Notes under the pieces: generated by a model | Database searches by the model: none | Told to the model about the DNA's origin: nothing | What the model saw: only the letters and a program-made list of their open reading frames with translations | Part shown: positions 3,705-63,082 of the stretch, piece by piece | How the letters are laid out: every line of letters begins with the position of its first letter | How positions within the stretch are numbered: the first letter of the stretch is position 1 | Made by a program: the position numbers and the translations under genes | Assembly: GCA_964016885.1 (NCBI GenBank) | Contig: OZ024742.1 | Location: 52,514,001-52,578,000 of the forward strand | From: Eledone cirrhosa | Lineage: Eukaryota | DNA: 64,000 nucleotides | Direction of reading: 5' to 3'

Positions 3705-6700
3705 GGGAAGAAGACGCACGAGGTGACGGAGGTCATGAAATCGCTCCCGTAAGTTTTGAATTTTTAACATATTTAAATCATTTGTGAAATAACAACTCTT
3801 AGTACAAATGCTACGTAAAGCACCCGGCTTGAGCCCCAAAAAAAACGGACCCCAAATATATTGGTATAAGGCTCAAATATTCAAATATTCAACTTTGTAT
3901 TGTACACTGTATATCCAAAAAAAAAAATGGCTATAAATGGAAGAAGAAGAAACCCCCCCCCCCTCCTCTCCTCTGGCTACACTATATAGGACAGCTAAAC
4001 TCACCAACACCAGAAACTAGATACACCACCCACCCCATCATCTGTGTACACTAAACACAACAGCATTTTCACCTTCACCGCCACCGCTCACTACGGCCAT
4101 CATTACCACCACTATCCCATCACCGCCGCCACCACCCCTTGACTCCTTCACTGCTGCTGCCACCGCTACAGCACCATCACTACAGTAATACGGTCGCATC
4201 ACCGCCACCACTGCCTCGGTATCGACATCACCACCACCACTGTCTCAGTATCGCCAGCGCCGCCAGCCTCCCACTTCTCCCTGCTGGCTGCTACTACTTC
4301 CACATTATAGAATCCCTACTACTAACAAAGAGGAAGGCATCAAAATATATAGATAGACTCAAAAGAAAAAAGAAAAAACAAACAACAAAACCAAAGCAGC
4401 ACAGCAACAACAGCAAAAAACGAGAAAAACAAACAGAGAAAAACAAAAACAAAAAAAGAAACCCCAAAAACGTAAAGAAAATAAGAATGAAGAGAGAAGC
4501 AGGCGGACGGACAGAGAAGAGGGGGGAAAAAGTAAAACTTAAAAAACAAAAACTAAGTCAGACATTCGAATACTACATTACAATGAAACTTATGCTTATT
4601 CATTTTTGGGGCCCTTTCTGCCCGTGTGTTTGTTTGTTTATGTGTGTTCGTATACAGCGTGGTGATAATGCCACACAAGGGCCAAGTGGGATGGCGGATC
4701 CACAGATGGCTATGTAAACATACATTCGCCAATCCTCGATAAGAGTGTTTAAATATCGAACATAAACAGTTCGAATAACGGTGAAATGGAGACTAGATCG
4801 TCATGTGACAGACTCTCACCCAACAGGTGCCCCCTGGCTCAGCAGCAGGAACCTGACTGTCAACCAAATACTGCTGATGTTGGAGGAAGAAGAAGAAGGA
4901 AAGGGGCCAGAACCAACTGGACGAAAGAATTGAATAGAACTGTTATGCAATGCTACCTGAAAAGTAACCCCAAGGAGAGGGGCTACAGGAGACGGATGCA
5001 TAACATCTGGAACGAGATTGGTTTATTTAAATTAGATGAACAAAAATTGGCCGGGCAGGCTCGGGTAATAAGAACTAATGGGTGGATAAGCGAGCTGGAA
5101 CTGGAGGAACTGAGCAGAGAGAATGGCTTGGAGATGGCGGGTGTAGTATGCCAGCCAAGCGAGCCGGTGGGAAATGAAGGTGAGGAGGTCCTGAGAACGG
5201 AGGAACCACCCGAAGCAGACAACGATCTGAATACTGAGATAAATAATACCTGGAACAGAGATACGGCCACTGAGGAGATGAATGCTGACGGGCTAGGACA
5301 AGATTCGGTTGACATCCTAAATCTAGTGGTAGATGAATTGAACAATGATAGTGGGAGACCTATGAACCTAAGATTTGTAGACAGGAAAAAGTTAAAAGAA
5401 ACAACAGCTAAGGTAAACAAAGTCATCCCATACCTTGAGGCGAGGAGTCTGCACCAGTGCAACAATATCCTCAAAGCAACAGCAAATACGGTGAGGAAAC
5501 TACTTGGTATAAAAGCGAGAGGAAACAACAGACAAGAAAGAGCAGAGCCGTGGTGGAAGAAGCGACTGAGTGGGCAAATCGGGGAAATGAGAGATGACAT
5601 AGGAAAGCTTGAGTCACTACTGAATGGGACACTAAAAAACATAGGCACTAAAAATAGACTGGAAATAAAATACAAAACTAGGAGTAAAAAGCTAAATATT
5701 ATCATAGAGGAATTGAAGCAACGCATTGTAGCAAAGAGTGCCAAAATCAGGCGATACGAGAACAGAGTCAGTCAGTATAAACAGAACCGCATGTTCGACA
5801 ACAACCAGAAGATGCTGTTTGGACAGCTTGAGGGGAAAGAAAGAAGCAACGACTTGATCCCTGGGGCGGAACAAGCTAAAACATTCTGGAGAGGAATATG
5901 GGAGCAGGATGTTAGACACAATGCCCAGGCAGGGTGGATTGAGACAGTACAGAGGGAGATCGGTGAGAAGGCACAACAACAGACTGATTTGAGTATCACA
6001 GTTGAAACTCTTAAGGGGCAAGCCAAAAAACTAACCAACTGGAAATCACCAGGCCCAGATGGTGTGCAGGGGTATTGGATTAAACATTTAACATCCCTCC
6101 ACCCGAAGCTGACGGCCATGTTCAATGACTGCTTGGTGTCGGGTGAGGTGCCAGAGTGGTTGACAAAAGGTACCACAGTTCTGATAATGAAAGACCGAAT
6201 CAAGGGTAATGATGTTACCAACTATAGACCTATCACATGTCTGCCCGTAATGTGGAAACTGTTGACGAGCATTGTGTCTGAGGAAATCTACCATCACCTC
6301 CACACAAACAACTTGTTACCGGACGAACAGAAAGGATGCCGAAAGAAGTCACGTGGTACAAAGGACCAGTTGCTTATTGATAAGATGGTAATGGGGAATT
6401 GCAGGAGGAGACACACTGATCTTGCCATGGGATGGATAGACTACAGAAAGGCATTTGACATGGTGCCTCATTCCTGGATCACCAAAAGCCTGGAGGTCTT
6501 CAGGGTGGCAGATAACATCAGACAGTTGTTGGGCAGGAGTATGGGGTCCTGGGAGACAGAGTTGACATCAACTGGAGTATCCTTGGGAAGCGTGAAGATC
6601 AAGAGAGGTATCTTCCAGGGAGATAGCCTGTCCCCTCTGTTGTTTGTCCTTGCCCTGATGCCCTTGACCATTATGCTGCGAAAAGTGAGAGCAGGATACA

Positions 6701-8252
6701 AGTTGGGAAGGGGAGAGCTTACCATCAATCACCTCCTCTTCATGGACGATCTTAAGCTCTTCGGGAAAAGTGAGAAGGAGTTGGATGTGCTTGTTGACAC
6801 TGTCCGTATTTTCAGCAGTGATATATGTATGCAGTTTGGTATTGGTAAATGTGGAGTCATTGTGATGAAGAGGGGTAGGTTGAGCAGAAGTAACGGGATC
6901 CAGATACCAACAGGTGAGATGATAAGGGAAATTGACTCTGAGGAAGGATACAAGTATTTGGGCGTTCTGGAGGCTGATGGCATAAAGAACAAAAAAATGA
7001 AGGAATTGTTAAGAACTGAATACATTCGGAGAGTAAGGAGCGTATTGAAGTCACATCTGAACAGCAGAAATGCCATAAGCGCAGTAAATTCCCGAGCTGT
7101 GTCTATTATTAGGTACAGTGCGGGAATTCTGAGATGGAATGTTGCTGAACAAAAAGAAATGGATAGGAAGACTAGGAAGCTATTGACTATCTACAACATG
7201 TTCCACAAGAGGAGTGATGTCGATAGACTCTACCTAAGGAGATCTGAGGGTGGAAGAGGTCTTATCAGCATAGAGGACTGTGTTCAGATGGAGAAAAACA
7301 ACTTATACAAATACGTGACCTATAGTAAGGAGCCAATGCTCAGAACTGTACTGAAGGAGGGGACAGTAGGCCAGGGGATGTCCAAGGAGGAAATAACATC
7401 AAGGAGGAAGAGCAGCCTTAAGGGAAAATCCCTTCATAGTACCTTCTTTGAGAAAACTGAATTTAGAGATCCACAGACATGGAACTGGTTGAGAAGAGGA
7501 GACCTCAAAAAGGCTACAGAAGGAATGCTAATGGCTGCGCAGGAGCAGGCCCTCAAAACGAAGTGGTTGAAGCACCATATCTACAAGGAGGAGGCTAGCC
7601 CACTGTGCAGGATCTGTGGAGAGAGAGAGGAGACTGTGGCTCACATTGTGTCCGAGTGTAAACACCTAGCCCAGACCCACTATAAGGGCTGGAGACACGA
7701 TGTGATGGGCAGGGTGATCCACTGGCACCTGTGCAAAGTAAGCAATCTACCACATTCTGAGAAATGGTATGAGCATAGGCCAGAGGCGGTGATGGAGAAC
7801 AGTCAGGTGAAGGTGCTGTGGGATTTTAGGATACAGACGGACAAAAAACTGGAACACAATAGACCTGACCTGGTGGTTATGGACAAAGAAAAAAGATCGT
7901 GCCTGATTGTGGATGTGGCCTGCCCGTTCGACACGAGAGTGCAAGAGAAGGAGAGGGAGAAAATTAACCGATACCAGGACCTAAAGTGGGAGGTGAAAAG
8001 GATATGGAACTGCCATGAAGTCAAAGTGATCCCGATTGTCATAGGCGCACTGGGGACTATCTCCAAAGGTTTCCAGGGATGATTAAAGAAAATCGGCCCC
8101 TTCACGCTTTTTGGAACGCTTCAAAAGGCATGCTTGCTTGGAACAGCAAGAACCCTCCGATACGTCCTGAATATCTGAGGCTGCAGGTAGTGGCTTGATA
8201 TTCAATCCAACGGACTTTCCAGTTAACCAACATCAATGACTGAGATTCAAGG
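3705..8252 (+). mobile_element. R4/Dong family A copy 2, full length with ~1.08-kb 5' UTR
   Basis: The 5' head GGGAAGAAGACGCAC..ATCGCTCCCGTAAG recurs at 8283 (+) and 43658 (-), each time next to a TAA tract. 3' UTR matches the other copies. TAA tail. Confidence 0.95.
4786..8178 (+). pseudogene. Dong RT-RLE polyprotein, 1098 aa open then premature TGA at 8080-8082 (TGG in other copies); natural stop 8176-8178
   Basis: ORF track, and comparison with the C-terminus of the 32606-35512 copy (..GWLKKIGPF..RYVLNI). Confidence 0.9.
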
Positions 8253-32605: not shown

Positions 32606-35509
32606 TCAGATATTCAGGACGTATCGGAGGGTTCTTGCTGTTCCAAGCAAGCATGCCTTTTGAAGCGTTCCAAAAAGCGTGAAGGGGCCGATTTTCTTTA
32701 ACCATCCCTGGAAACTTTTGGAGATAGTCCCCAGTGCGCCTATGACAATCGGGATCACTTTGACTTCATGGCAGTTCCAAATCCTTTTCACCTCCCACTT
32801 TAGGTCCTGGTATCGGTTAATTTTCTCCCTCTCTTTCTCTTGCACTCTCGTGTCGAACGGGCAGGCCACATCCACAATCAGGCACGATCTTTTTTCTTTG
32901 TCCACAACCACCAGGTCAGGTCTATTGTGTTCCAGTTTTTTGTCCGTCTGTATCCTAAAATCCCACAGCACCTTCACCTGATTGTTCTCCATCACCGCCT
33001 CTGGCCTATGCTCATACCATTTCTCAGAATGTGGTAAATTGTTTACTTTGCACAGGTGCCAGTGGATCACCCTGCCCATCACATCGTGTCTCCAGCCCTT
33101 ATAGTGGGTCTGGGCTAGGTGTTTACACTCGGACACAATGTGAGCCACAGTCTCCTCTCTCTCTCCACAGATCCTGCACAGTGGGCTAGCCTCCTCCTTG
33201 TAGATATGGTGCTTCAACCACTTCGTTTTGAGGGCCTGCTCCTGCGCAGCCATTAGCATTCCTTCTGTAGCCTTTTTGAGGTCTCCTCTTCTCAACCAGT
33301 TCCATGTCTGTGGATCTCTAAATTCAGTTTTCTCAAAGAAGGTACTATGAAGGGATTTTCCCTTAAGGCTGCTCTTCCTCCTTGATGTTATTTCCTCCTT
33401 GGACATCCCCTGGCCTACTGTCCCCTCCTTCAGTACAGTTCTGAGCATTGGCTCCTTACTATAGGTCACGTATTTGTATAGGTTGTTTTTCTCCATCTGA
33501 ACACAGTCCTCTATGCTGATAAGACCTCTTCCACCCTCAGATCTCCTTAGGTAGAGTCTATCGACATCACTCCTCTTGTGGAACATGTTGTAGATAGTCA
33601 ATAGCTTCCTAGTCTTCCCATCCATTTCTTTTTGTTCAGCAACATTCCATCTCAGAATTCCCGCACTGTACCTAATAATAGACACAGCTCGGGAATTTAC
33701 TGCGCTTATGGCATTTCTGCTGTTCAGATGTGACTTCAATACGCTCCTTACTCTCCGAATGTATTCAGTTCTTAACAATTCCTTAATTTTTTTGTTCTTT
33801 ATGCCATCAGCCTCCAGAACGCCCAAATACTTGTATCCTTCCTCAGAGTCAATTTCCTTTATCATCTCACCTGTTGGTATCTGGATCCCGTTACTTCTGC
33901 TCAACCTACCCCTCTTCATCACAATGACTCCACATTTACCAATACCAAACTGCATACATATATCACTGCTGAAAATACGGACAGTGTCAACAAGCACATC
34001 CAACTCCTTCTCACTTTTCCCGAAGAGCTTAAGATCGTCCATGAAGAGGAGGTGATTGATGGTAAGCTCTCCCTTTCCCAACTTGTATCCTGCTCTCACT
34101 TTTCGCAGCATAATGGTCAAGGGCATCAGGGCAAGGACAAACAACAGAGGGGACAGGCTATCTCCCTGGAAGATACCTCTCTTGATCTTCACGCTTCCCA
34201 AGGATACTCCAGTTGATGTCAACTCTGTCTCCCAGGACCCCATACTCCTGCCTAGCAACTGTCTGATGTTATCTGCCACCCTGAAGATCTCCAGGCTTTT
34301 GGTGATCCAGGAATGAGGCAACATGTCAAATGCCTTTCTGTAGTCAATCCATCCCATGGCAAGATCAGTGTGTCTCCTCCTGCAATTCCCCATTACCATC
34401 TTATCAATAAGTAACTGGTCCTTTGTACCACGTGACTTCTTTCGGCATCCTTTCTGTTCGTCCGGTAACAAGTTGTTTGTGTGGAGGTGATGGTAGATTT
34501 CCTCAGACACAATGCTCGTCAACAGTTTCCACATTACGGACAGACATGTGATAGGTCTATAGTTGGTAACATCATTACCCTTGATTCGGTCTTTCATTAT
34601 CAGAACTGTGGTACCTTTTGTCAACCACTCTGGCACCTCACCCGACACCAAGCAGTCATTGAACATGGCCGTCAGCTTCGGGTGGAGGGATGTTAAATGT
34701 TTAATCCAATACCCCTGCACACCATCTGGGCCTGGTGATTTCCAGTTGGTTAGTTTTTTGGCCTGCCCCTTAAGGGTTTCAACTGTGATACTCAAATCAG
34801 TTTGTTGTTGTGCCTGCTCACCGATCTCCCTCTGTACTGTCTCAATCCACCCTGCCTGGGCATTGTGTCTAACATCCTGCTCCCATATTCCTCTCCAGAA
34901 TGTTTTTGTTTGTTCCGCCCCAGGGATCAAGTCGTTGCCTCTTTCTTTCCCCTCAAGCTGTCCAAACAGCATCTTCTGGTTGTTGTCGAACATGCGGTTC
35001 TGTTTATACTGACTGACTCTGTTCTCGTATCGCCTGATTTTTGCACTCTTTGCTACAATGCGTTGCTTCAATTCCTCTATGATAATATTTAGCTTTTTAC
35101 TCCTAGTTTTGTATTTTATTTCCAGTCTATTTTTAGTGCCTATGTTTTTTAGTGTCCCATTCAGTAGTGACTCAAGCTTTCCTATGTCATTTCTCATCTC
35201 CCCGATTTGCCCACTCAGTCGCTTCTTCCACCACAGCTCTGCTCTTCCTTGTCTGTTGTTTCCTCTCGCTTTTATACCAAGTAGTTTCCTCACCGTATTT
35301 GCTGTTGCTTTGAGGATATTGTTGCACTGGTGAAGGCTCCTCGCCTCAAGGTATGGGATGACTTTGTTTACCTTAGCTGTTGTTTCTTTTAACTTTTTCC
35401 TGTCTACAAATCTTCGGTTCATAGGTCTCCCACTATCATTGTTCAATTCATCTACCACTAAATTTAGGATGTCAACCGAATCTTGTCCTAGCCCGTCAGC
35501 ATTCGTCAG

Positions 35510-35512
<3 letters not shown>
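32606..35512 (-). CDS. Dong family A RT-RLE ORF, 968 aa, uninterrupted but 5'-truncated (element 32530-35512)
   Basis: All RT, zinc-knuckle and RLE motifs intact. Lacks the N-terminal Myb-like region. Confidence 0.93.

Positions 35513-35600
<88 letters not shown>
35511..35600 (+). repeat. (TTA)30 microsatellite between head-to-head Dong and Tx1
   Basis: Direct read. Confidence 0.98.
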
Positions 35601-38600
35601 GGCGACCTACGTAGGAAATCGTATTATCGTAAGCTCTGCAAAGGTTTGTTGTTTTCAGTTGTTCCAAATTGCCATCTATGGAACATTTTTGTTGTTAAGT
35701 GTTTATAAGTTCACATATATTGATTTCTGAAAAGAACACTCAAAAGGATTGGGGCTTTGAGCCCAAAATTTAAACTTTTATAATTATCAAACAAAAAATT
35801 ACTTTGAAAAAATCATGGACGACTCACAGCCACACCAAGCTGACAGCCTTCCTCACGAACTAACACCTCACACCAACACAACCATTGTAAATATTACTAC
35901 GTTTGCCAACACTAAAAATATAAGAAGTAGCAATAATTTAAATTTGTCTCATGCAGACATTCATTTCCCGCTATTACCAAAAACTGCGGGTGTTATAGTC
36001 GCCAGCCCAACCACCACCACAGCGACAACAGAAACAAAAGTAAAAAAATAAATTATTATCTCGTGACACCGAAATGGATTCACCCAGAATCGATTCTTCC
36101 ACACCGAACACCACTGACGCCACCACCACAACTGAAACTAAAAATAACAATAACAAAAATACAATAACAACAGCAACAACAACAATGAGAATAACAACAA
36201 AAACATCAACACCACCGCAAATGTGTCATTTGCCAAAGCAGCCAAGAAATGCGAAACAATCGAGGTAACTCAGGAGGAATTAACTGAAGCCAAGAGAATG
36301 GTAAAGAAAGATGGGTACAGGGTCAGTCTCATCCCCTCCCAACTAATAAAATGAAGCATAGGCGCCTATGCACCGTGTCTTATCGGACGATTAACACGAA
36401 ATCGCGCCGAGTGGAACGGGCATCCGCGTCCCAGATCCAAAAAGCTTTGGGATATGTGTGGGCGGAAAAAACCCACATCAGAAGTGGGCAGAAAGATGGA
36501 ACAGTGGACGTGTTCTTTGGAAAACCACAGGAGGCCAGAGAACACTCCATGGCCTCATTAAGAAGTGACGACTTCACACTCGTCTGAAGCTATTGTGGCC
36601 AGAGACTCGTGAAGATCAGGGTGACCCACGTTCCACCGGCCATCGAAATTGCCTGGCTAATGGCTGCCGTCCTCGCCAGCAGCGAGGCCAACAACAAAAT
36701 AATTGAAATATCAAAAGACAAGCAGGAGAACTGGTCCGGATCTGGGATGGAGCTCCTGATCCAAGCGGACCAAAAAAGCATTGAGGAAATCACAGAGGTA
36801 ATAGACATCACTGACGGCAAACACCTCACCGTAATCGTCGAGGGTAGAAGGCCTAGGTGTGTCGTTTGTGGTGAAGGAACCCACCTAATGACTTTCTGCC
36901 CTCAGGCTAAAAAGATGAGGCCACCTCTCTTACCCACCCCAGTGACTCAACCATCAACACCACCAGCAGCAGAAATGGCAGCAACAACTGTAGCAGCAAC
37001 AGAAGCAACTGTAGCAGCAACAACCCCAGCAACAGTAGCAAAACCAACACCACCACCACCCACCGCGCCAGAACTAGCACCAGCGCCTACAACATCCACC
37101 ACGCCACAACCAAAACTAACGCCTGTGGAGGATTTTCCACTCCCGACCTATCGCAATTGGAGACAGATTCTGACGACGAGGAGTGGGAAACTGTATCAGG
37201 AAAAAAGAAAAAAAGAAAAAGAAACCAGAATAGAAAAAATCCACTTCCTTCCATCTCTAAAAACAAAATACAGGGGGAAACAAATAAACTATCAAACAAA
37301 AAGGTAGGGACAGCTATGCCACCATCCAGACCAGCATCACCAACCCCATCACCACAAACACCAACACCATCACCATCATTAACCCCAACACCACCATCAC
37401 CAACACCACAAAAGTCAGCAAAAAGCGAAACAGAAACAAACCCACAACAAACGCAAACAAAACAAGACAACAAAAACGATACACACTACACAGCATTAAA
37501 TTTGAACAACAACCAATGATTACACTACATCCAACATAACACCAGCATCACAGAAAAAGACTACACAACACACCAAAAGTTCACACCACCTCCACACATA
37601 CAAATCACTCGCATAACACAGAAAACATACACGATACTAAAACAAAAATTCCCCAGAGACATCGGAGACTTCCGACAAACACTCTCCGGGAGGATTCATA
37701 GGGACATCCTTCCGGGGGAGGTCACAAGCAGTGAAAAGGATGGAGAAACCATCCTTCCTCTACGAGAAGTAAAGTAAGTGGTCTTTGCCATCTTTTCCAC
37801 TCCTTTTCAACATGACCTCACTCAGAATAGGCAGCATAAATGCGCGTGGCTTGGGGTCGTCATGGAAGCAGGGCCACCTGCTCAACGACCTCAGGTCACG
37901 AACCATAGATGTAGTGGCCATCAGTGAGACCAGATCTTCGCAACGATCTTCGGTTGCTACGATATGTACGCATCTCCCAGCCGTCCTGGATTGGGGGGGT
38001 GAATTTGCTGTGCTTTTTCGGAGAGGTTTGGATCTCGCCATACGGGCCATCTTCCTGGTCCCAGAAGGTAAGTTGGTGGTGCTGGACGTGACCAGCGGAG
38101 ACGGGCAAGCTTTCAGGCTAGTGGCCGTCTATGTTCCGACAGGAGCAGGGCGGCCTGATTTCTTCCGGCGTCTGCGTCTGGATACCTTTCTTGGAACATC
38201 CCGCACTTTAGTGTTAGTGAGCGGCTAGAACAGGATCTTAGATGCACGCTGTGACTGTGTGGGATTAGCGGTAGAGGAGAAGCGTGCAAGAGCCTCACCA
38301 ACCTGCTCAGGCGTTTTGAACTGTCTGACAGGTGCCGATTGGATTTCCCGAATGTGCCAATGTGGACTTGGACATACCGCATCTGGTCATCCAGATCATA
38401 TCTAGATAGAGTATTTTGTAGGGAAATAGATAGGTCTAGCATAGGCTGTCCACAATTCAAGATAGTCAGCTACACGGACCACAAATTCGTGATCTGTGTG
38501 GTTGATTTAGATAGGCTTCATAGACAAGGAGCCGGCTACTGGAAGCTAAATGCGTCCTTACCAGCGCGCAAGGCCTACAGAGACCGGATTAGCGAACTAG

Positions 38601-55291: not shown

Positions 55292-55386
<95 letters not shown>

Positions 55387-55587
55387 TTAGTTATACTATT
55401 TATGGTTATGTAAACACAAAACCTTAAGCAGTTGTAAGTATTTTACACACACCCTAAATAGTGGTAGGCAGTAATGTATTACTACCTTATTACCAGTAAG
55501 TTAAGTAGCTCAATGTAAAAACATCAGATGATTTACAGAGCAGTTATATGAAATATAAGAATCAAAGAACTGTTCAAAACATTATTG

Positions 55588-55634
55588 TGCTTACAGCTGT
55601 TTCCTCCAAACCGAGGTTTGGATTCTTCGGAGCA
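55588..55634 (-). ncRNA. Variant hammerhead ribozyme motif of the PLE
   Basis: TGCT-CCGAAGA-A-TCCAAAC(CTCG)GTTTGGA-G-GAAA-CAGCTG-TA-AGCA. Confidence 0.75.
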
Positions 55635-57077
55635 ATTTATTAATGCATGGACAGTTATATGACCTCCTTTTCAGCCGAGAGACATACCAATACATATTCA
55701 AGCATTGATACATATTCAAATATTGTGGGTCAACATTCATTACAGAATTTAGAGTGGCAGTACACACTTCGAGATTACATTTATATTAATAGGTACAATC
55801 AAAAATCAAAGATATAGGTTAAAGTACAACATGAAGATAAGTGGTTATATAGTGCAAATGTTATATGTGTGGCACGCATGTGCGTCTTGTTTATATAGTG
55901 TGGCAGAGAGATATGTGTGGTAGAGGCACTTAGGTAGGTAAATAAGAGTGTTAGGTTGGTAGATCTGGTGGCAAAGTCTTTATATGATTGATATAGTCTG
56001 TGTGTGGAGAAATATTATAAGCGTTAAAGATAGTGCAAGCATTAAAAGTGTTATAAGTATTGGAGATGCACAGCGCAGGGATGTCAAGTAATTCATGTAC
56101 TTCGGCATTTTCATGGTCAAGGGAGTGTATATTTCGATTATATGCCTTTCACATAATCCACGACAATCCAGTTAGAGATCGTAGTCTGGTGTTCTTTAGT
56201 TCGATACAGGAGGTTGTTACGTTTCGAGAGACGCCAATGAATACCGGAAGTGTGTGTGTGGCTAAGGGGAGTTAATGCATGCGGGGAGGTAACTCTGGGG
56301 TTTCTATATCTAGCCATTAAAATGTGTCCCAATATAGACCCTAAATTCTATGGTGAGGTGCACCTTCCAAGAGAGACTTTTAAAGCATAAAGTGTACTAA
56401 CTATAGAGTAGTTTAACTAAATTATGCTGAAGGTGATCATATTATTATTAAGGTGGATTAACCCATCTTAAGGTGCTACAAATGGAAATTATAGATGATG
56501 AGCGAGGATTCTAAATTAATGATCTCTGTGGTTGTAGTCTGCTCATATGACCAGGCGCGGTGATTGCAGGATTGCTTCAGGACCCAATGATCTCTGGTAA
56601 GATCTGGGTCATCGCTTGCTACATTGGATGTCGAAAGATAATCGTCCCCAGGCAGGCCAAAGGTCAATCCGCAGTCCTCGCGACCCCTCTCTGACCGTCA
56701 GATCATCCATATACGTACAACCCGCACGGCAGTTGCATTGCATTCACTCACCGCGCTCAGCAGCCCGGTCCTACTGGTCAACAGTGCTACTCGATTAAAT
56801 CATTTTACATCTGTCTAAGGAAGGTGTTTCCTCTGCCCAACACCATCCAACCGATCAATTCATGCTCAAATTACCCTTAGAGCGGTGTAGTGCCGTCCAG
56901 GTGGGTGGATGTTGTCACACCTGCCGTAGAGGTATAAACGGGTATTTTCCCTGCGAAGGGTTCCAGAGGGATGTCGTTGTTTGTGTTATAATGGATCAGC
57001 TAGTGTTGGGTATGTAGTATAGGGTGTGTCTCTGGTGTTTGATGCTAGATGTGGTGTTAGGTTCCGGTCCGACATTG

Positions 57078-59537
57078 CTATATATAGGGCTTAAAGTTTT
57101 GGAAGGAATGTCTGAGGCGGTGCTGGCAAGTTGCAAACACCTCAGATTTTTTGTTAAGTAGGTTACGGTTGGAGAAGATAATATTGTGTGTCTCTAGTAT
57201 ACAGAGGTTACAGAATTTATTAGGTGGTTTGTACGAGGTCGCGCTGCCTATCACTTCCCATTTGAGTGTGTATGGTTTATTTTTAGATTTTAGATAGTGT
57301 ATGTAGCTAGAAAGTGAGGTGGAGTTGGCTAGGCTGTGCTTTTTGAACGAGTGGATGTGCGAGTTATATCTAATTTTGAAGCAGTTAGAAGTGGAGCCTA
57401 CATAGGTTTCTGAAGAGTTATTAGTCGTGACTGTGCATGAGTATATGACATCCTTGGTTAGGCATTTTTTATCTAAAGGGCAGGTTCTATTAGCTCTACA
57501 GTTACAATTATTCTGTGCGTTAGTCCGCTGGTTATAATGCAATGCGGAAGTCTGTGTGGTGGATATAGGATTTTGGGTGTTCAGGTTGACAACCCTGGTG
57601 TTATTACTTATACTAGTGTTATTTCTATTGTTACTGCCGTTGCTATTGTTGCTTGCTACAGTGGTATTTAGAGGGTTTGCATCCCGTTGTGATTTTGTTT
57701 GTTGGAAGTAAGAACTAATTTTACTATTATTGCTGCTAGCTATGTGGTATGCTAAGTTAGGCGTCGTAGAGTATGAGATTTTAATGGTGTTTTTGTTTAA
57801 GAGGTTGTGGTACTTGTGTCCTAGAGGGAAGTTTTTATCTAGTAGTGAGAAGAAAGCCCTAGGTATGTTGGTGGAGACATTTAGGTTGAAAGGAGGGTTG
57901 AAAAATGTATTATTTCTTCTTCTATTTTTACTTTTAGTGTTTGGTGTGTTGCTTCCTCCTAAGGCCTCACAGTAGTTTCCATGGTAATGGTTACTTCCGG
58001 TGGCACCCTCCGCTTTGGTGTACTTGTGGTTGCTATTCCTATTATTAGATTTCCTCATGGACATGTTGTGCGAGATGATGTTGTAGCTATGTGTTTTCTT
58101 AGGTAGGAACTCAATTTCTATATTATGGCCGGAGCTAGCTAATGCTTGATTGTAATATTGTGAGTTTTTGCTAAATATGTTTGCGTCATAGGACAGACTA
58201 GAGATTCTATTGGACACCCCCTTAGAGATAGAGTTTAATATTGATCTAGGGTGATTAGACTTGGTATCTACGTAAATAAGTTTCTCATTAGGCTTATGGA
58301 AAGGTGTATATATTTTTGAGTCTAGGTATAGTGTGGCGTCTAGGAAGTTAACATTTTTAGTGTTTTTGTCCATGGTGATACTAAGGTTAAAGTTTTTGAA
58401 TGTCTTATGCAGTTGTTTTCTAGTTCTTTCTATATTAAATTTTTTATATTCTATGAGTAGAAGTGCATCATCGCGGTACAAACCACCGTTGAGGTAAGGG
58501 AGGTCTTTATGGATTTCGTTGAGGAGGTATAGGCCGACCAAATCAGTGACCTGCGCCGAGTCACTAGATCCCATGGTTATGTCGAAGTTGTTGTGCGTAT
58601 CCTTGCGTGTCCATAGTTGGTCCTCGAAGGTGATTATGGTTTTACGGGCCGCAAGGATGACATCAACCTGGGCTCTAGTCAGGTCGCTATTGGTCATGGC
58701 CATGATAAGTGCCTTATTTAATAGGATAGGGGAAATAGAGGTGTAGTATGAATTGATATCAAATTGAATAAATTTTTTGTTCTTATTATTCTTGATATCC
58801 TTAAACCATTCAATTACTTCACCCGTATTTCCCCATTGTTTAAGGTGTATCTTGTGTTTAATTTGTGGGATGATTTTATCCAAAATCTTCTTGCTGATAA
58901 TACCAATGTCGGACTTGGAAGGGCAGATAAGTTTTATCGTGGGGTTGCTGATGAAGTTCTCCTTATGGTCCTTCAGAGAGAATCTAGGGGGGTTCGGAGT
59001 GAAAGGTTGTGTATGCCTCTGTAGTCCTAGTTTAGACACTATATTATAACCCTCTACATTAATATCTTCTAAGTTTTTCAAGGTGGTTTTTTTGTAGCTT
59101 TTATGTAGTTCATTATATATAAACTTTCTATAAGTAATATAATCTAGGCTGTATATGTTATTAGTTTTATCTGCGTGTACAATAATTTTATTACTAGTTT
59201 TGAATCCACTAATAGAAGTGTTAAGTTTGTTTAAGAAGGTGTTGCTTCTAATATGGTGCTTATTGTATTTAATGTTCTTAACTAGTTTAACTAGGTCATT
59301 TTCAAAGGAGTTAAGTAGAGTGTTATGAGGGGGGCTTTTAAAGGTTTTAAAGCCGAAGGAGTCAAAATTGTTAGTATTATTCAAGTTGTTAGATTTGTTT
59401 CTATCATAATGGAATGTCCTCCATCTCACTCTATTGATAAATGAATTTACACTGTTGATCAGCAATTTCTCATATGTATTCCTGGATGGTATTGGTATGT
59501 TCTTGGTTGACATGGGGAGTTGGTCTTTGATTAGCAT
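57078..59537 (-). CDS. PLE RT-GIY-YIG protein, 819 aa, intact
   Basis: KNIPIP, ADKTNN, QFDINSYY, FDITMGS, GLYRDD, VNFLD, FNPPF, CNCRANRTC (CxCx5C), VIY..YVG..R...H, KW, CNLC..E. Confidence 0.93.
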   Translation of the reverse strand: MLIKDQLPMSTKNIPIPSRNTYEKLLINSVNSFINRVRWRTFHYDRNKSNNLNNTNNFDSFGFKTFKSPPHNTLLNSFENDLVKLVKNIKYNKHHIRSNTFLNKLNTSISGFKTSNKIIVHADKTNNIYSLDYITYRKFIYNELHKSYKKTTLKNLEDINVEGYNIVSKLGLQRHTQPFTPNPPRFSLKDHKENFISNPTIKLICPSKSDIGIISKKILDKIIPQIKHKIHLKQWGNTGEVIEWFKDIKNNKNKKFIQFDINSYYTSISPILLNKALIMAMTNSDLTRAQVDVILAARKTIITFEDQLWTRKDTHNNFDITMGSSDSAQVTDLVGLYLLNEIHKDLPYLNGGLYRDDALLLIEYKKFNIERTRKQLHKTFKNFNLSITMDKNTKNVNFLDATLYLDSKIYTPFHKPNEKLIYVDTKSNHPRSILNSISKGVSNRISSLSYDANIFSKNSQYYNQALASSGHNIEIEFLPKKTHSYNIISHNMSMRKSNNRNSNHKYTKAEGATGSNHYHGNYCEALGGSNTPNTKSKNRRRNNTFFNPPFNLNVSTNIPRAFFSLLDKNFPLGHKYHNLLNKNTIKISYSTTPNLAYHIASSNNSKISSYFQQTKSQRDANPLNTTVASNNSNGSNNRNNTSISNNTRVVNLNTQNPISTTQTSALHYNQRTNAQNNCNCRANRTCPLDKKCLTKDVIYSCTVTTNNSSETYVGSTSNCFKIRYNSHIHSFKKHSLANSTSLSSYIHYLKSKNKPYTLKWEVIGSATSYKPPNKFCNLCILETHNIIFSNRNLLNKKSEVFATCQHRLRHSFQNFKPYI

Positions 59538-59790
59538 ATTGGCAATATTATATGTCAGCTCAACGATATGGAGCAGTTAATAGTATTAGTTATACTATTT
59601 ATGGTTATGTAAACACAAAACCTTAAGCAGTTGTAAGTATTTTACACACACCCTAAATAGTGGTAGGCAGTAATGTATTACTACCTTATTACCAGTAAGT
59701 TAAGTAGCTCAATGTAAAAACATCAGATGATTTACAGAGCAGTTATATGAAATATAAGAATCAAAGAACTGTTCAAAACATTATTGTGCT

Positions 59791-61983
59791 TACCACATAG
59801 CTAGCAGCAATAATAGTAAAATTAGTTCTTACTTCCAACAAACAAAATCACAACGGGATGCAAACCCTCTAAATACCACTGTAGCAAGCAACAATAGCAA
59901 CGGCAGTAACAATAGAAATAACACTAGTATAAGTAATAACACCAGGGTTGTCAACCTGAACACCCAAAATCCTATATCCACCACACAGACTTCCGCATTG
60001 CATTATAACCAGCGGACTAACGCACAGAATAATTGTAACTGTAGAGCTAATAGAACCTGCCCTTTAGATAAAAAATGCCTAACCAAGGATGTCATATACT
60101 CATGCACAGTCACGACTAATAACTCTTCAGAAACCTATGTAGGCTCCACTTCTAACTGCTTCAAAATTAGATATAACTCGCACATCCACTCGTTCAAAAA
60201 GCACAGCCTAGCCAACTCCACCTCACTTTCTAGCTACATACACTATCTAAAATCTAAAAATAAACCATACACACTCAAATGGGAAGTGATAGGCAGCGCG
60301 ACCTCGTACAAACCACCTAATAAATTCTGTAACCTCTGTATACTAGAGACACACAATATTATCTTCTCCAACCGTAACCTACTTAACAAAAAATCTGAGG
60401 TGTTTGCAACTTGCCAGCACCGCCTCAGACATTCCTTCCAAAACTTTAAGCCCTATATATAGCAATGTCGGACCGGAACCTAACACCACATCTAGCATCA
60501 AACACCAGAGACACACCCTATACTACATACCCAACACTAGCTGATCCATTATAACACAAACAACGACATCCCTCTGGAACCCTTCGCAGGGAAAATACCC
60601 GTTTATACCTCTACGGCAGGTGTGACAACATCCACCCACCTGGACGGCACTACACCGCTCTAAGGGTAATTTGAGCATGAATTGATCGGTTGGATGGTGT
60701 TGGGCAGAGGAAACACCTTCCTTAGACAGATGTAAAATGATTTAATCGAGTAGCACTGTTGACCAGTAGGACCGGGCTGCTGAGCGCGGTGAGTGAATGC
60801 AATGCAACTGCCGTGCGGGTTGTACGTATATGGATGATCTGACGGTCAGAGAGGGGTCGCGAGGACTGCGGATTGACCTTTGGCCTGCCTGGGGACGATT
60901 ATCTTTCGACATCCAATGTAGCAAGCGATGACCCAGATCTTACCAGAGATCATTGGGTCCTGAAGCAATCCTGCAATCACCGCGCCTGGTCATATGAGCA
61001 GACTACAACCACAGAGATCATTAATTTAGAATCCTCGCTCATCATCTATAATTTCCATTTGTAGCACCTTAAGATGGGTTAATCCACCTTAATAATAATA
61101 TGATCACCTTCAGCATAATTTAGTTAAACTACTCTATAGTTAGTACACTTTATGCTTTAAAAGTCTCTCTTGGAAGGTGCACCTCACCATAGAATTTAGG
61201 GTCTATATTGGGACACATTTTAATGGCTAGATATAGAAACCCCAGAGTTACCTCCCCGCATGCATTAACTCTCCTTAGCCACACACACACTTCCGGTATT
61301 CAATGGCGTCTCTCGAAACGTAACAACCTCCTGTATCGAACTAAAGAACACCAGACTACGATCTCTAACTGGATTGTCGTGGATTATGTGAAAGGCATAT
61401 AATCGAAATATACACTCCCTTGACCATGAAAATGCCGAAGTACATGAATTACTTGACATCCCTGCGCTGTGCATCTCCAATACTTATAACACTTTTAATG
61501 CTTGCACTATCTTTAACGCTTATAATATTTCTCCACACACAGACTATATCAATCATATAAAGACTTTGCCACCAGATCTACCAACCTAACACTCTTATTT
61601 ACCTACCTAAGTGCCTCTACCACACATATCTCTCTGCCACACTATATAAACAAGACGCACATGCGTGCCACACATATAACATTTGCACTATATAACCACT
61701 TATCTTCATGTTGTACTTTAACCTATATCTTTGATTTTTGATTGTACCTATTAATATAAATGTAATCTCGAAGTGTGTACTGCCACTCTAAATTCTGTAA
61801 TGAATGTTGACCCACAATGTTTGAATATGTATCAATGTTTGAATATGTATTGGTATGTCTCTCGGCTGAAAAGGAGGTCATATAACTGTCCATGCATTAA
61901 TAAATTGCTCCGAAGAATCCAAACCTCGGTTTGGAGGAAACAGCTGTAAGCACAATAATGTTTTGAACAGTTCTTTGATTCTT

Positions 61984-61995
<12 letters not shown>
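59791..61995 (+). mobile_element. Inverted 5'-truncated duplicate of the PLE (GIY-YIG part, 3' UTR, hammerhead)
   Basis: Reverse complement of ~55545-57749 with only a few differences. Ends in (TA)n. Confidence 0.95.
61906..61952 (+). ncRNA. Variant hammerhead ribozyme motif (second copy)
   Basis: Identical to 55588-55634. Confidence 0.75.
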
Positions 61996-62047
<52 letters not shown>

Positions 62048-62228: not shown

Positions 62229-62804
62229 TATATGAAAGATGTAAAATAAGAAAATTATAGTAATTAACTTACTTACTTAAGTTTCACTCCAACTAATTAG
62301 TTTCTGGAAGGGGATATACATAGTTTTCAAAGCTATGGAGAATCCTTTCTTCATCGGGGAGTCAATTCTCGGCTAAGATTCCTGGCGATAGGCGGACACA
62401 GGGAGCTCAAACAAAAATAATTCAGTGAATGGAAAAAAAGCAAGCGCGGACTAAATTTCAAGGCAATGAAAATTTCACTGCCTTCCTGGTCAGTGGCAAA
62501 TTCAAAAGAATCAATCACGTGACATCTAGGTTAATCAGTGAGGAGTGGGGTGTTAAAAAGACAGTAGCCAAAATGTTACTATGAACCATAGTAACTTTTT
62601 TCCATTCACTGAATAATTTTTGTTTGCGCTCCCTGTGTCCGCCTATCGCCAGGAATCTTAGCCGAGAATTGACTCCCTGATGAAGAAAGGATTCTCCATA
62701 GTTTTGAACACTATGTATATCCCCTTTCAGAAACTAATTAGTTGGAGTGAAACTTAAGTAAGTAAGTTAATTACTATAATTTTCTTATTTTACATCTTTC
62801 ATAT
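62229..62804. mobile_element. Foldback element with ~210-bp inverted arms (62229-62440, 62595-62804), each carrying a hammerhead motif
   Basis: Direct comparison. + strand motif at 62672-62748: ACTCC-CTGATGA..GAAA-CTAATTAG-TT-GGAGT. Confidence 0.85.
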
Positions 62805-63082
62805 AATTGTTCTACATTTTTGTATTGAACCACAAAGTTACTAAGACAAAACCTATATCTTGCTAGCGTAAATATACATCTGTATAAATATGTTGGTAGA
62901 TATACTAATTCTTTATATATATATATATATATATGTATATATTTATTAAAATAACAGATTAAAGTTTAAGCAAAGAATCGCTGCTATTTTAATAAATATT
63001 TGCTCTACGGTTCTTATATATTTGATATATATTTATACTTATCGAGCCCTCTTAGGATTTTAGTCTTCAAATTTATTATTAT

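Follow-up and report, generated by a model that had tools for sequence, protein, structure and literature searches.

A Penelope-like element insertion in Eledone cirrhosa starts at its predicted hammerhead cut, a position that does not set the transposition unit of its family

Within the 64-kb stretch of Eledone cirrhosa DNA analysed here (the window), the full-length arm of a two-armed insertion (locus L066) of a Penelope-like element (PLE) starts at 59790-59793, a position compatible with the predicted cut of a hammerhead. The coincidence is correct, but the strong reading of it, in which the ribozyme cut sets the transposition unit of this family, is refuted because the 5' ends of the copies are scattered, the outcome that the earlier note on this DNA had itself named as its refutation. 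A weaker version, in which a minority of transcripts is cleaved, survives.

Whether, and why, PLE hammerheads cut in living cells is an open question, addressed here at genome scale. Their function is described as still unclear in the available part of Craig et al. (2021, PMC8557442), and no RNA ends were found at the PLE hammerhead cut according to the available part of Frangieh et al. (2024, PMC11167929). A literature search in an incomplete collection found no paper in which the 5' junctions of genomic copies had been placed relative to the cut of a PLE hammerhead. One version of the question is answered by the young family described below, of approximately 2000 arms: its unit is not set by the cut. 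The family further provides a footprint that can be counted (ends at 0 and symmetric junctions at 0..+10, relative to the cut) and, separately, a strict pairing of +47 and +211 ends from one donor. With footprint and pairing, both a minor role of the ribozyme and the source of inverted repeats in PLEs become directly testable.

Architecture of the insertion

Positions are numbered from 0, the first base 3' of the predicted cut, which is 55591 in the 3' repeat and 59790 in the 5' repeat; negative values lie upstream on the element's minus strand. Outer ends at +46 and +210 are named the +47 end and the +211 end. Region 55381-61995 is a single head-to-head insertion of a young Hydra-type PLE inside a (TA)n tract, with an element unit of 4.2 kb and the following features.

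55306..55380, no strand: left-flank (TA)n target tract, from sequence reading
55381..55591, minus strand: 3' pseudo-LTR beyond the cut, stopping at the family-wide +211 end, then (TA)n
55579..55646, minus strand: predicted type I hammerhead, from folds and conservation; predicted cut after GUA at 55592/55591
55647..57077, minus strand: 3' UTR of approximately 1.4 kb, from sequence reading
57078..59576, minus strand: uninterrupted ORF for a PLE reverse transcriptase with C-terminal GIY-YIG endonuclease; 832 codons between stops, with the first ATG as codon 14
59580..59790, minus strand: 5' pseudo-LTR remnant extending 211 nt, cut position through +210, without the ribozyme core and 100% identical to the 3' repeat
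59791..59793, no strand: GTA microhomology between the head-to-head arms; junction ambiguous over -3..0 (boundary of this locus -3, overlap 3)
59791..61995, plus strand: inverted 5'-truncated arm, equivalent to 57749-55545, stopping at the family-wide +47 end
61894..61961, plus strand: another intact hammerhead, carried by the inverted arm, which crosses its predicted cut (61948/61949)
61996..62047, no strand: right-flank (TA)n target tract, from sequence reading

The direct repeat comprises 214 nt, 59580-59793 being 100% identical to 55381-55594. The minus-strand sequence of the 3' copy is CAGCTGTA up to the predicted cut between 55592 and 55591 and AGCACAAT after it, while the 5' copy reads ctatgtg GTA and then AGCACAAT. 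It was thus confirmed that the upstream pseudo-LTR begins at the predicted cut, with AGCACAAT at 59790 and the GTA common to the inverted arm, and the proposed joining to an inverted copy by short microhomology was borne out by the 3-nt overlap. The inverted copy had previously been taken for a piece of the ORF; the copy is present but is larger, since its 2205 nt, with 4 differences from 57749-55545, traverse the 3' UTR as well as the second intact hammerhead before stopping at +47 in (TA)n. No target duplication was discernible within the (TA)n repeat flanking the insertion.

The encoded protein and its clade

The reverse transcriptase motifs FDINSYY, TMGS and YRDD and the endonuclease motif VIY..YVG were read by eye in the ORF protein. 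Homologs numbered 816 at E<=1e-20 among 7999 scored, and two of the best 120 of these carried PF01541, which we take to be GIY-YIG. The ORF protein itself gave no match in Pfam, NCBIfam or PDB sequence searches. It contains RWR, DKT, CNCRANRTC (CxCX5C), CNLC (CxxC) and CQH (CxH); the motifs of the Hydra clade are given as RWK-like, DKT, CxCX5C, CxxC and CxH in the available part of Craig et al. (2021, PMC8557442). Among the characters of a PLE, a single ORF with PLE reverse transcriptase and C-terminal GIY-YIG was found by motifs and homologs, together with pseudo-LTRs from partial tandems, an inverted 5'-truncated copy and an optional tail. Insertion into (TA)n, a trait of the Hydra clade, was seen in nearly all of 79 arms without the ORF, which run into (TA)n-type repeats. 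Judged by its motifs and (TA)n targeting, the element is placed as a Hydra-type PLE. The family is young, the best 40 matches to the 3' region being 99-100% identical, and numbers approximately 2000 arm copies.

As far as the available part of PMC8557442 describes them, Hydra-clade PLEs share with this element the C-terminal GIY-YIG, the clade motifs, (TA)n targets, the pseudo-LTR hammerhead, and partial tandems next to which lies an inverted 5'-truncated copy. They are generally under 3 kb with tails of 30-40 nt, whereas the present unit is 4.2 kb with a 3' UTR of 1.4 kb and a tail of 164 nt, and its hammerhead core is non-canonical.

The predicted hammerhead

The predicted ribozyme is composed of stem I, a CCGAAGA core (U4C), an 8-bp stem II (55622-55605), GAAA and a palindromic stem III, CAGCUG. 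Its three stems surround the core in type I order and stems I and II appear in folds, with z-scores of -2.98 for the 320-nt region and -1.2 to -1.5 for the motif alone. Core positions C3, G5, A6, G8 and A9, G12, A13, A14 and A15.1, and U16.1 and H17 were all found, as were GAAAC and GUA.

Conservation was assessed in 324 parsed copies of 349 matches, in which loci overlap, so the counts are not independent. CCGAAGA was present in 321 of the 324; U4 was absent, with C4 in nearly all parsed copies, and the G10.1-C11.1 pair was likewise absent, an A standing opposite G at 10.1/11.1 in 312. The stem III palindrome was kept, as CAGCTG in 278 copies, CAGTTG in 12 and CAATTG in 24, and proximal stem I was constant with position +4 variable. 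Subfamilies as divergent as approximately 83-85% identity retain the core, the proximal part of stem I and a palindromic stem III. An Rfam search returned no hammerhead match at E up to 5; despite this miss, the sequence evidence indicates that the fold and its conservation are real. The original description, of a PLE whose type I hammerhead is non-canonical, is supported; its cleavage is a prediction. According to the available part of PMC3088659, U4C lowers activity in vitro, yet is tolerated in a viroid.

In divergent subfamilies (L186-L245, with approximately 83-85% identity in the ribozyme region) the U4C core is retained and stem III is changed from CAGCTG to CAATTG; one copy (L227) has a canonical CUGAAGA.

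In common with the minimal hammerheads of metazoan PLEs, as described in the available part of Cervera and de la Pena (2014, PMC4209133), the motif is of type I with a long stem II of 8 bp, a short stem I, an extra nucleotide after A9 and a palindromic stem III suited to dimers. It differs in that U4C is fixed in the family and the usually conserved G10.1-C11.1 is absent.

Distribution of 5' ends around the predicted cut

An exact 35-mer spanning the cut was found at 1995 places genome-wide. Arms starting at -4..0 gave 25 pattern matches, or 22 after three indel variants were dropped, the pattern having required non-element bases at -5 and -8 and missing perhaps a quarter. The pile-up of family 5' ends that the earlier note anticipated at the cut base is absent: 1995 places cross it against 22 arms at -4..0, the ends are scattered, and about 99% of related copies run through the predicted cut.

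Copies bearing the ORF gave the same picture. The genome holds 132 exact ORF-start copies, two of which (L066 in the window and L080) start at -4..0. A set chosen regardless of 5' end was drawn from most of the first 100 of the 132 and one further locus, giving 96 distinct copies among 107 records with extension by BLAST. Of its 95 rows, which include one duplicate, 80 cross the cut, 14 stop downstream and one (L066) lies at -4..0; ten ORF-bearing rows were ended by the edge of the fetched stretch. Many of the 80 crossing rows extend 0.5-2 kb upstream through an intact ribozyme. Stops occurred at 0.25% per nt at -4..0 versus 0.22% per nt at -100..-5, and at the latter rate over 4-5 nt the chance of a single copy ending at the cut is approximately 1%. 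Two ORF-bearing starts at -4..0 compare with an expectation of 0.3-0.9 (P for two or more, 0.03-0.24), and L066, one of the two, was picked for the coincidence itself.

With one of 95 rows and two of 132 copies at the cut, and 80 of 95 crossing it, the claim that the ribozyme defines the transposition unit fails. In its fullest form, where complete copies would extend from cut to cut with a 3' tail, it is exceedingly improbable: L066 and L080 do have a cut-to-cut shape, but they are the two of 132 ORF-start copies that do, by a filter that misses about a quarter, and 80 of 95 rows extend through the intact ribozyme. In R2 elements the 5' end is fixed by an HDV-like ribozyme, according to the available part of PMC6765202; a corresponding pile-up is not found in this family. 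Nor is the cleave-and-circularise model, as set out in the available part of PMC4209133, what most genomic copies here record.

In genomic DNA reads from four sequencing runs aligned over 55385-56600, neither loose ends nor ends of molecules coincided with the cut among the matches listed, a result given no weight here. No RNA runs with the element sequence were present among the sequencing-run matches listed. Near-identical sequence was encountered in sequencing runs X1-X7 under four different organism codes, with a share of words of 0.48-0.76; the reads aligned over 55385-56600 came from three of these organisms.

The 5' ends of ORF-bearing copies cluster at -97..-59, with 13 of 65 in one 40-nt span (scan P = 0.024, post hoc). 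A second, looser cluster occupies a GC-rich portion of the 3' UTR at -1169..-1109. Both clusters may be transcription starts.

Probable twin priming at two fixed 3' ends

A set of unbiased arms was formed by the first 88 of the 1995 intact places, in 60 regions. Of these arms, 43 end at +45/46, 36 at +209/210 and nine continue into the ORF. The 36 arms at +209/210 support a fixed 3' end approximately 210 nt past an uncleaved 3' ribozyme, which the earlier note had proposed as the start of cDNA synthesis and which would be a priming site. Both outer ends could be resolved in 30 loci, and every one of the 30 combined a single +47 end with a single +211 end; in the other 30 regions the partner was unrecognisable or beyond the fetched stretch. 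Partner arms derive from one donor, because they agree at 212 of 213 polymorphic-site comparisons, as against 19699 of 30851 (64%) for non-partners. The longer arm can be either one, and simple fold-back of a single cDNA is ruled out by the +47 arm often extending further upstream than the +211 arm. Most joins between arms have an overlap of a few bases and some have spacers.

Our inference is twin priming, with one donor supplying the RNA and +47 and +211 serving as the two fixed sites. The endonuclease would cut both strands of the (TA)n target, and from each 3'-OH reverse transcription would begin at one or the other site. The RNA templates would mostly be transcripts of more than unit length with uncleaved hammerheads. 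Each cDNA would halt at a variable point and the two ends would be joined via 0-5 nt of microhomology, the upstream pseudo-LTR being as much of the following tandem unit as had been copied by then. Partner arms could derive from two RNA molecules of one donor, one cut and one uncut.

Between the +47 end and (TA)n there are often short units copied anew (TTTCATATA-like repeats), for example in L063, L077, L086 and L219. This suggests slippage at priming, of the kind known from telomerase-like repeat addition.

In an anole PLE studied in vitro (Anolis Poseidon PAc; Frangieh et al. 2024, PMC11167929), both target strands were extended, two internal start sites were used and ribozyme cleavage was dispensable. 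To the extent that the available part of that paper describes it, the two systems have in common the two internal reverse transcription start sites that define the tail and an AT-rich target with both strands extended; no RNA-seq ends at the cut are reported in that system. In the present family the two ends lie 164 nt apart and occur strictly one per arm across loci, and the ORF starts downstream of both ends, whereas theirs starts inside the ribozyme. Inverted junctions of Adineta Penelope elements, as given in the available part of PMC3846280, resemble those described here in their head-to-head arms, junction palindromes with microhomology and optional tail. Self-priming on an antisense template was proposed there, whereas the ends found here, paired as +47 and +211 and with no fixed rule as to which arm is longer, speak for two cDNAs primed separately.

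Junctions near the predicted cut

Raw pattern matches per span were 113 at -57..-45, 91 at -38..-26, 27 at -20..-8, 25 at -4..0, 110 at -4..+8, 147 at +5..+17 and 44 at +20..+28. In the control spans -57..-45 and -38..-26 these were mostly other subfamilies and indel variants, true ends in the first 30 loci numbering approximately 11 and 12, respectively; after removal of variants from the first 30 loci in each of three spans the background was approximately 2-4 ends per base. For -4..+8 and +5..+17 the first 100 of 110 and the first 100 of 147 were scored and apparent variants dropped by eye. The resulting junction set covers 100 regions including those of -20..-8, positions -7..-5 and +18/+19 lying outside the patterns.

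In this set 11 arms (10 loci) end exactly at 0, versus 0-2 at -2, -1 and +1..+4. Eight arms end at -4, and 31, 11, 19 and 18 at +6, +7, +8 and +9, the count at +8 mixing subfamilies. Seven of the ends at 0 are in symmetric arms, all with an overlap of <=1 nt or an untemplated spacer, and four in asymmetric arms. Around the cut, 40 of 45 near-symmetric loci have both arms at 0 or later, three of the 40 being other-subfamily copies mis-scored at +8, and five have one arm upstream of 0. There are 37 mini-palindromic insertions with both arms starting at 0..+17, and a 0/+7 junction was seen three times, in two subfamilies. No symmetric junctions were found at the perfect 8-bp palindrome at -9..-2, though the search pattern would admit them; its register scores above the +7.5 register, which carries most junctions.

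Upstream of the cut, the stem II hairpin carries 27 symmetric head-to-head junctions, at L276-L287 and 15 further places, whose two arms both cross the cut; they occur in several subfamilies and in either loop orientation. Six further near-symmetric pairs at -83..-486 occur among the 88 unbiased arms. Symmetric joins need no cleavage, because the pairs at stem II and at -83..-486 cross the cut, and a hard wall at the cut, suggested by the cluster at 0..+10, is weakened by the 27 stem II junctions. Amplification of one mini-element as the source of the recurrent junctions was rejected, the +6/+9 junction occurring in both orientations and in more than one subfamily.

The excess of near-symmetric arms at or after 0, with its tight ends at 0, is the trace expected of two cDNAs that run off a cut RNA. 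It is conceivable, if on balance somewhat doubtful, that in vivo a few per cent of transcripts are cleaved by the dimer-type U4C hammerhead. Two cDNAs, started at +47 and +211, would then be made from the 3' cleavage product, and mini-palindromic insertions whose arms both stop at or just past the cut would result. If true, the mini-palindromes would be a genomic record of in vivo PLE hammerhead activity within strict two-site twin priming, and the long arm of L066 may be a rare full-length case of copying from cut RNA.

Origin of the junction at 59790-59793

The L066 insertion probably arose from two cDNAs primed at +47 and +211 on the RNA of one donor, the long arm having stopped at the predicted cut by chance. 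Among asymmetric junctions, to which L066 belongs, the four ends at 0 are no excess over the 3-9 found at several neighbouring positions. The earlier proposal that this junction records cleavage in vivo was not upheld, ends at -3/-4 occurring in four loci (L068, L073, L079 and L081) whose partner arms cross the cut. Counted against a chance stop are the small excess of ends exactly at 0 in the junction set, the end of L080 exactly at 0 or inside its 2-nt overlap, the number of ORF-bearing starts, which is on the high side of expectation, and the possible origin of partner arms from one cut and one uncut RNA.

For L066 such truncation is more likely than run-off from a cut end. The latter, in which the hammerhead would cut a minority of transcripts in vivo and the cDNA would run off the cut 5' end, the upstream ribozyme having been cut and the downstream one left uncut, is rather unlikely for this arm. 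It draws support from the near-symmetric loci with both arms at 0 or later, the seven tight symmetric ends at 0, the recurrent 0/+7 junction, the unused palindrome at -9..-2 and the conservation of the ribozyme parts across subfamilies. This signal, however, sits in the symmetric class, whereas L066 is asymmetric, and the stem II and far-upstream joins form symmetrically across the cut. The peak moreover lies not at 0 but at +6..+9, where it coincides with a quasi-palindrome and with the internal loop of stem I, a possible stall point for the polymerase; stalling at the folded ribozyme and the ACAATAATGT quasi-palindrome fits equally well. The lower in vitro activity of U4C (PMC3088659, available part) and the missing G10.1-C11.1 pair also count against cleavage. 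A boundary set by a transcription start or by a GTAAGC splice donor is very unlikely. GTAAGC does begin at -3, the outer boundary of L066, and PLE pseudo-LTRs carry promoters and introns according to the available part of PMC8557442, but just two arms genome-wide start at -3, the ORF-bearing 5' ends cluster elsewhere (-97..-59), and ORF-bearing copies show no pile-up at the putative acceptor.

Neighbouring sequence in the window

The segment 70-52666 is a LINE-rich stretch with at least eight other ORFs carrying RVT_1, an ORF with an endonuclease/exonuclease/phosphatase domain and another with zf-RVT alone; 70-2337, 4753-8082 and 32606-35623 resemble related copies. Beside (TA)n, a 210-nt inverted repeat (62229-62438 and 62596-62805, 97% identical, 157-nt spacer) ends in TTTCATAT, like the +47 end. 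A hammerhead-like motif is present in each of its arms, with CUGAUGA..GAAAC in canonical form and CUAAUUAG as a palindrome (approximately 62672-62750, plus strand), and the repeat is probably a head-to-head mini-insertion of another PLE family.
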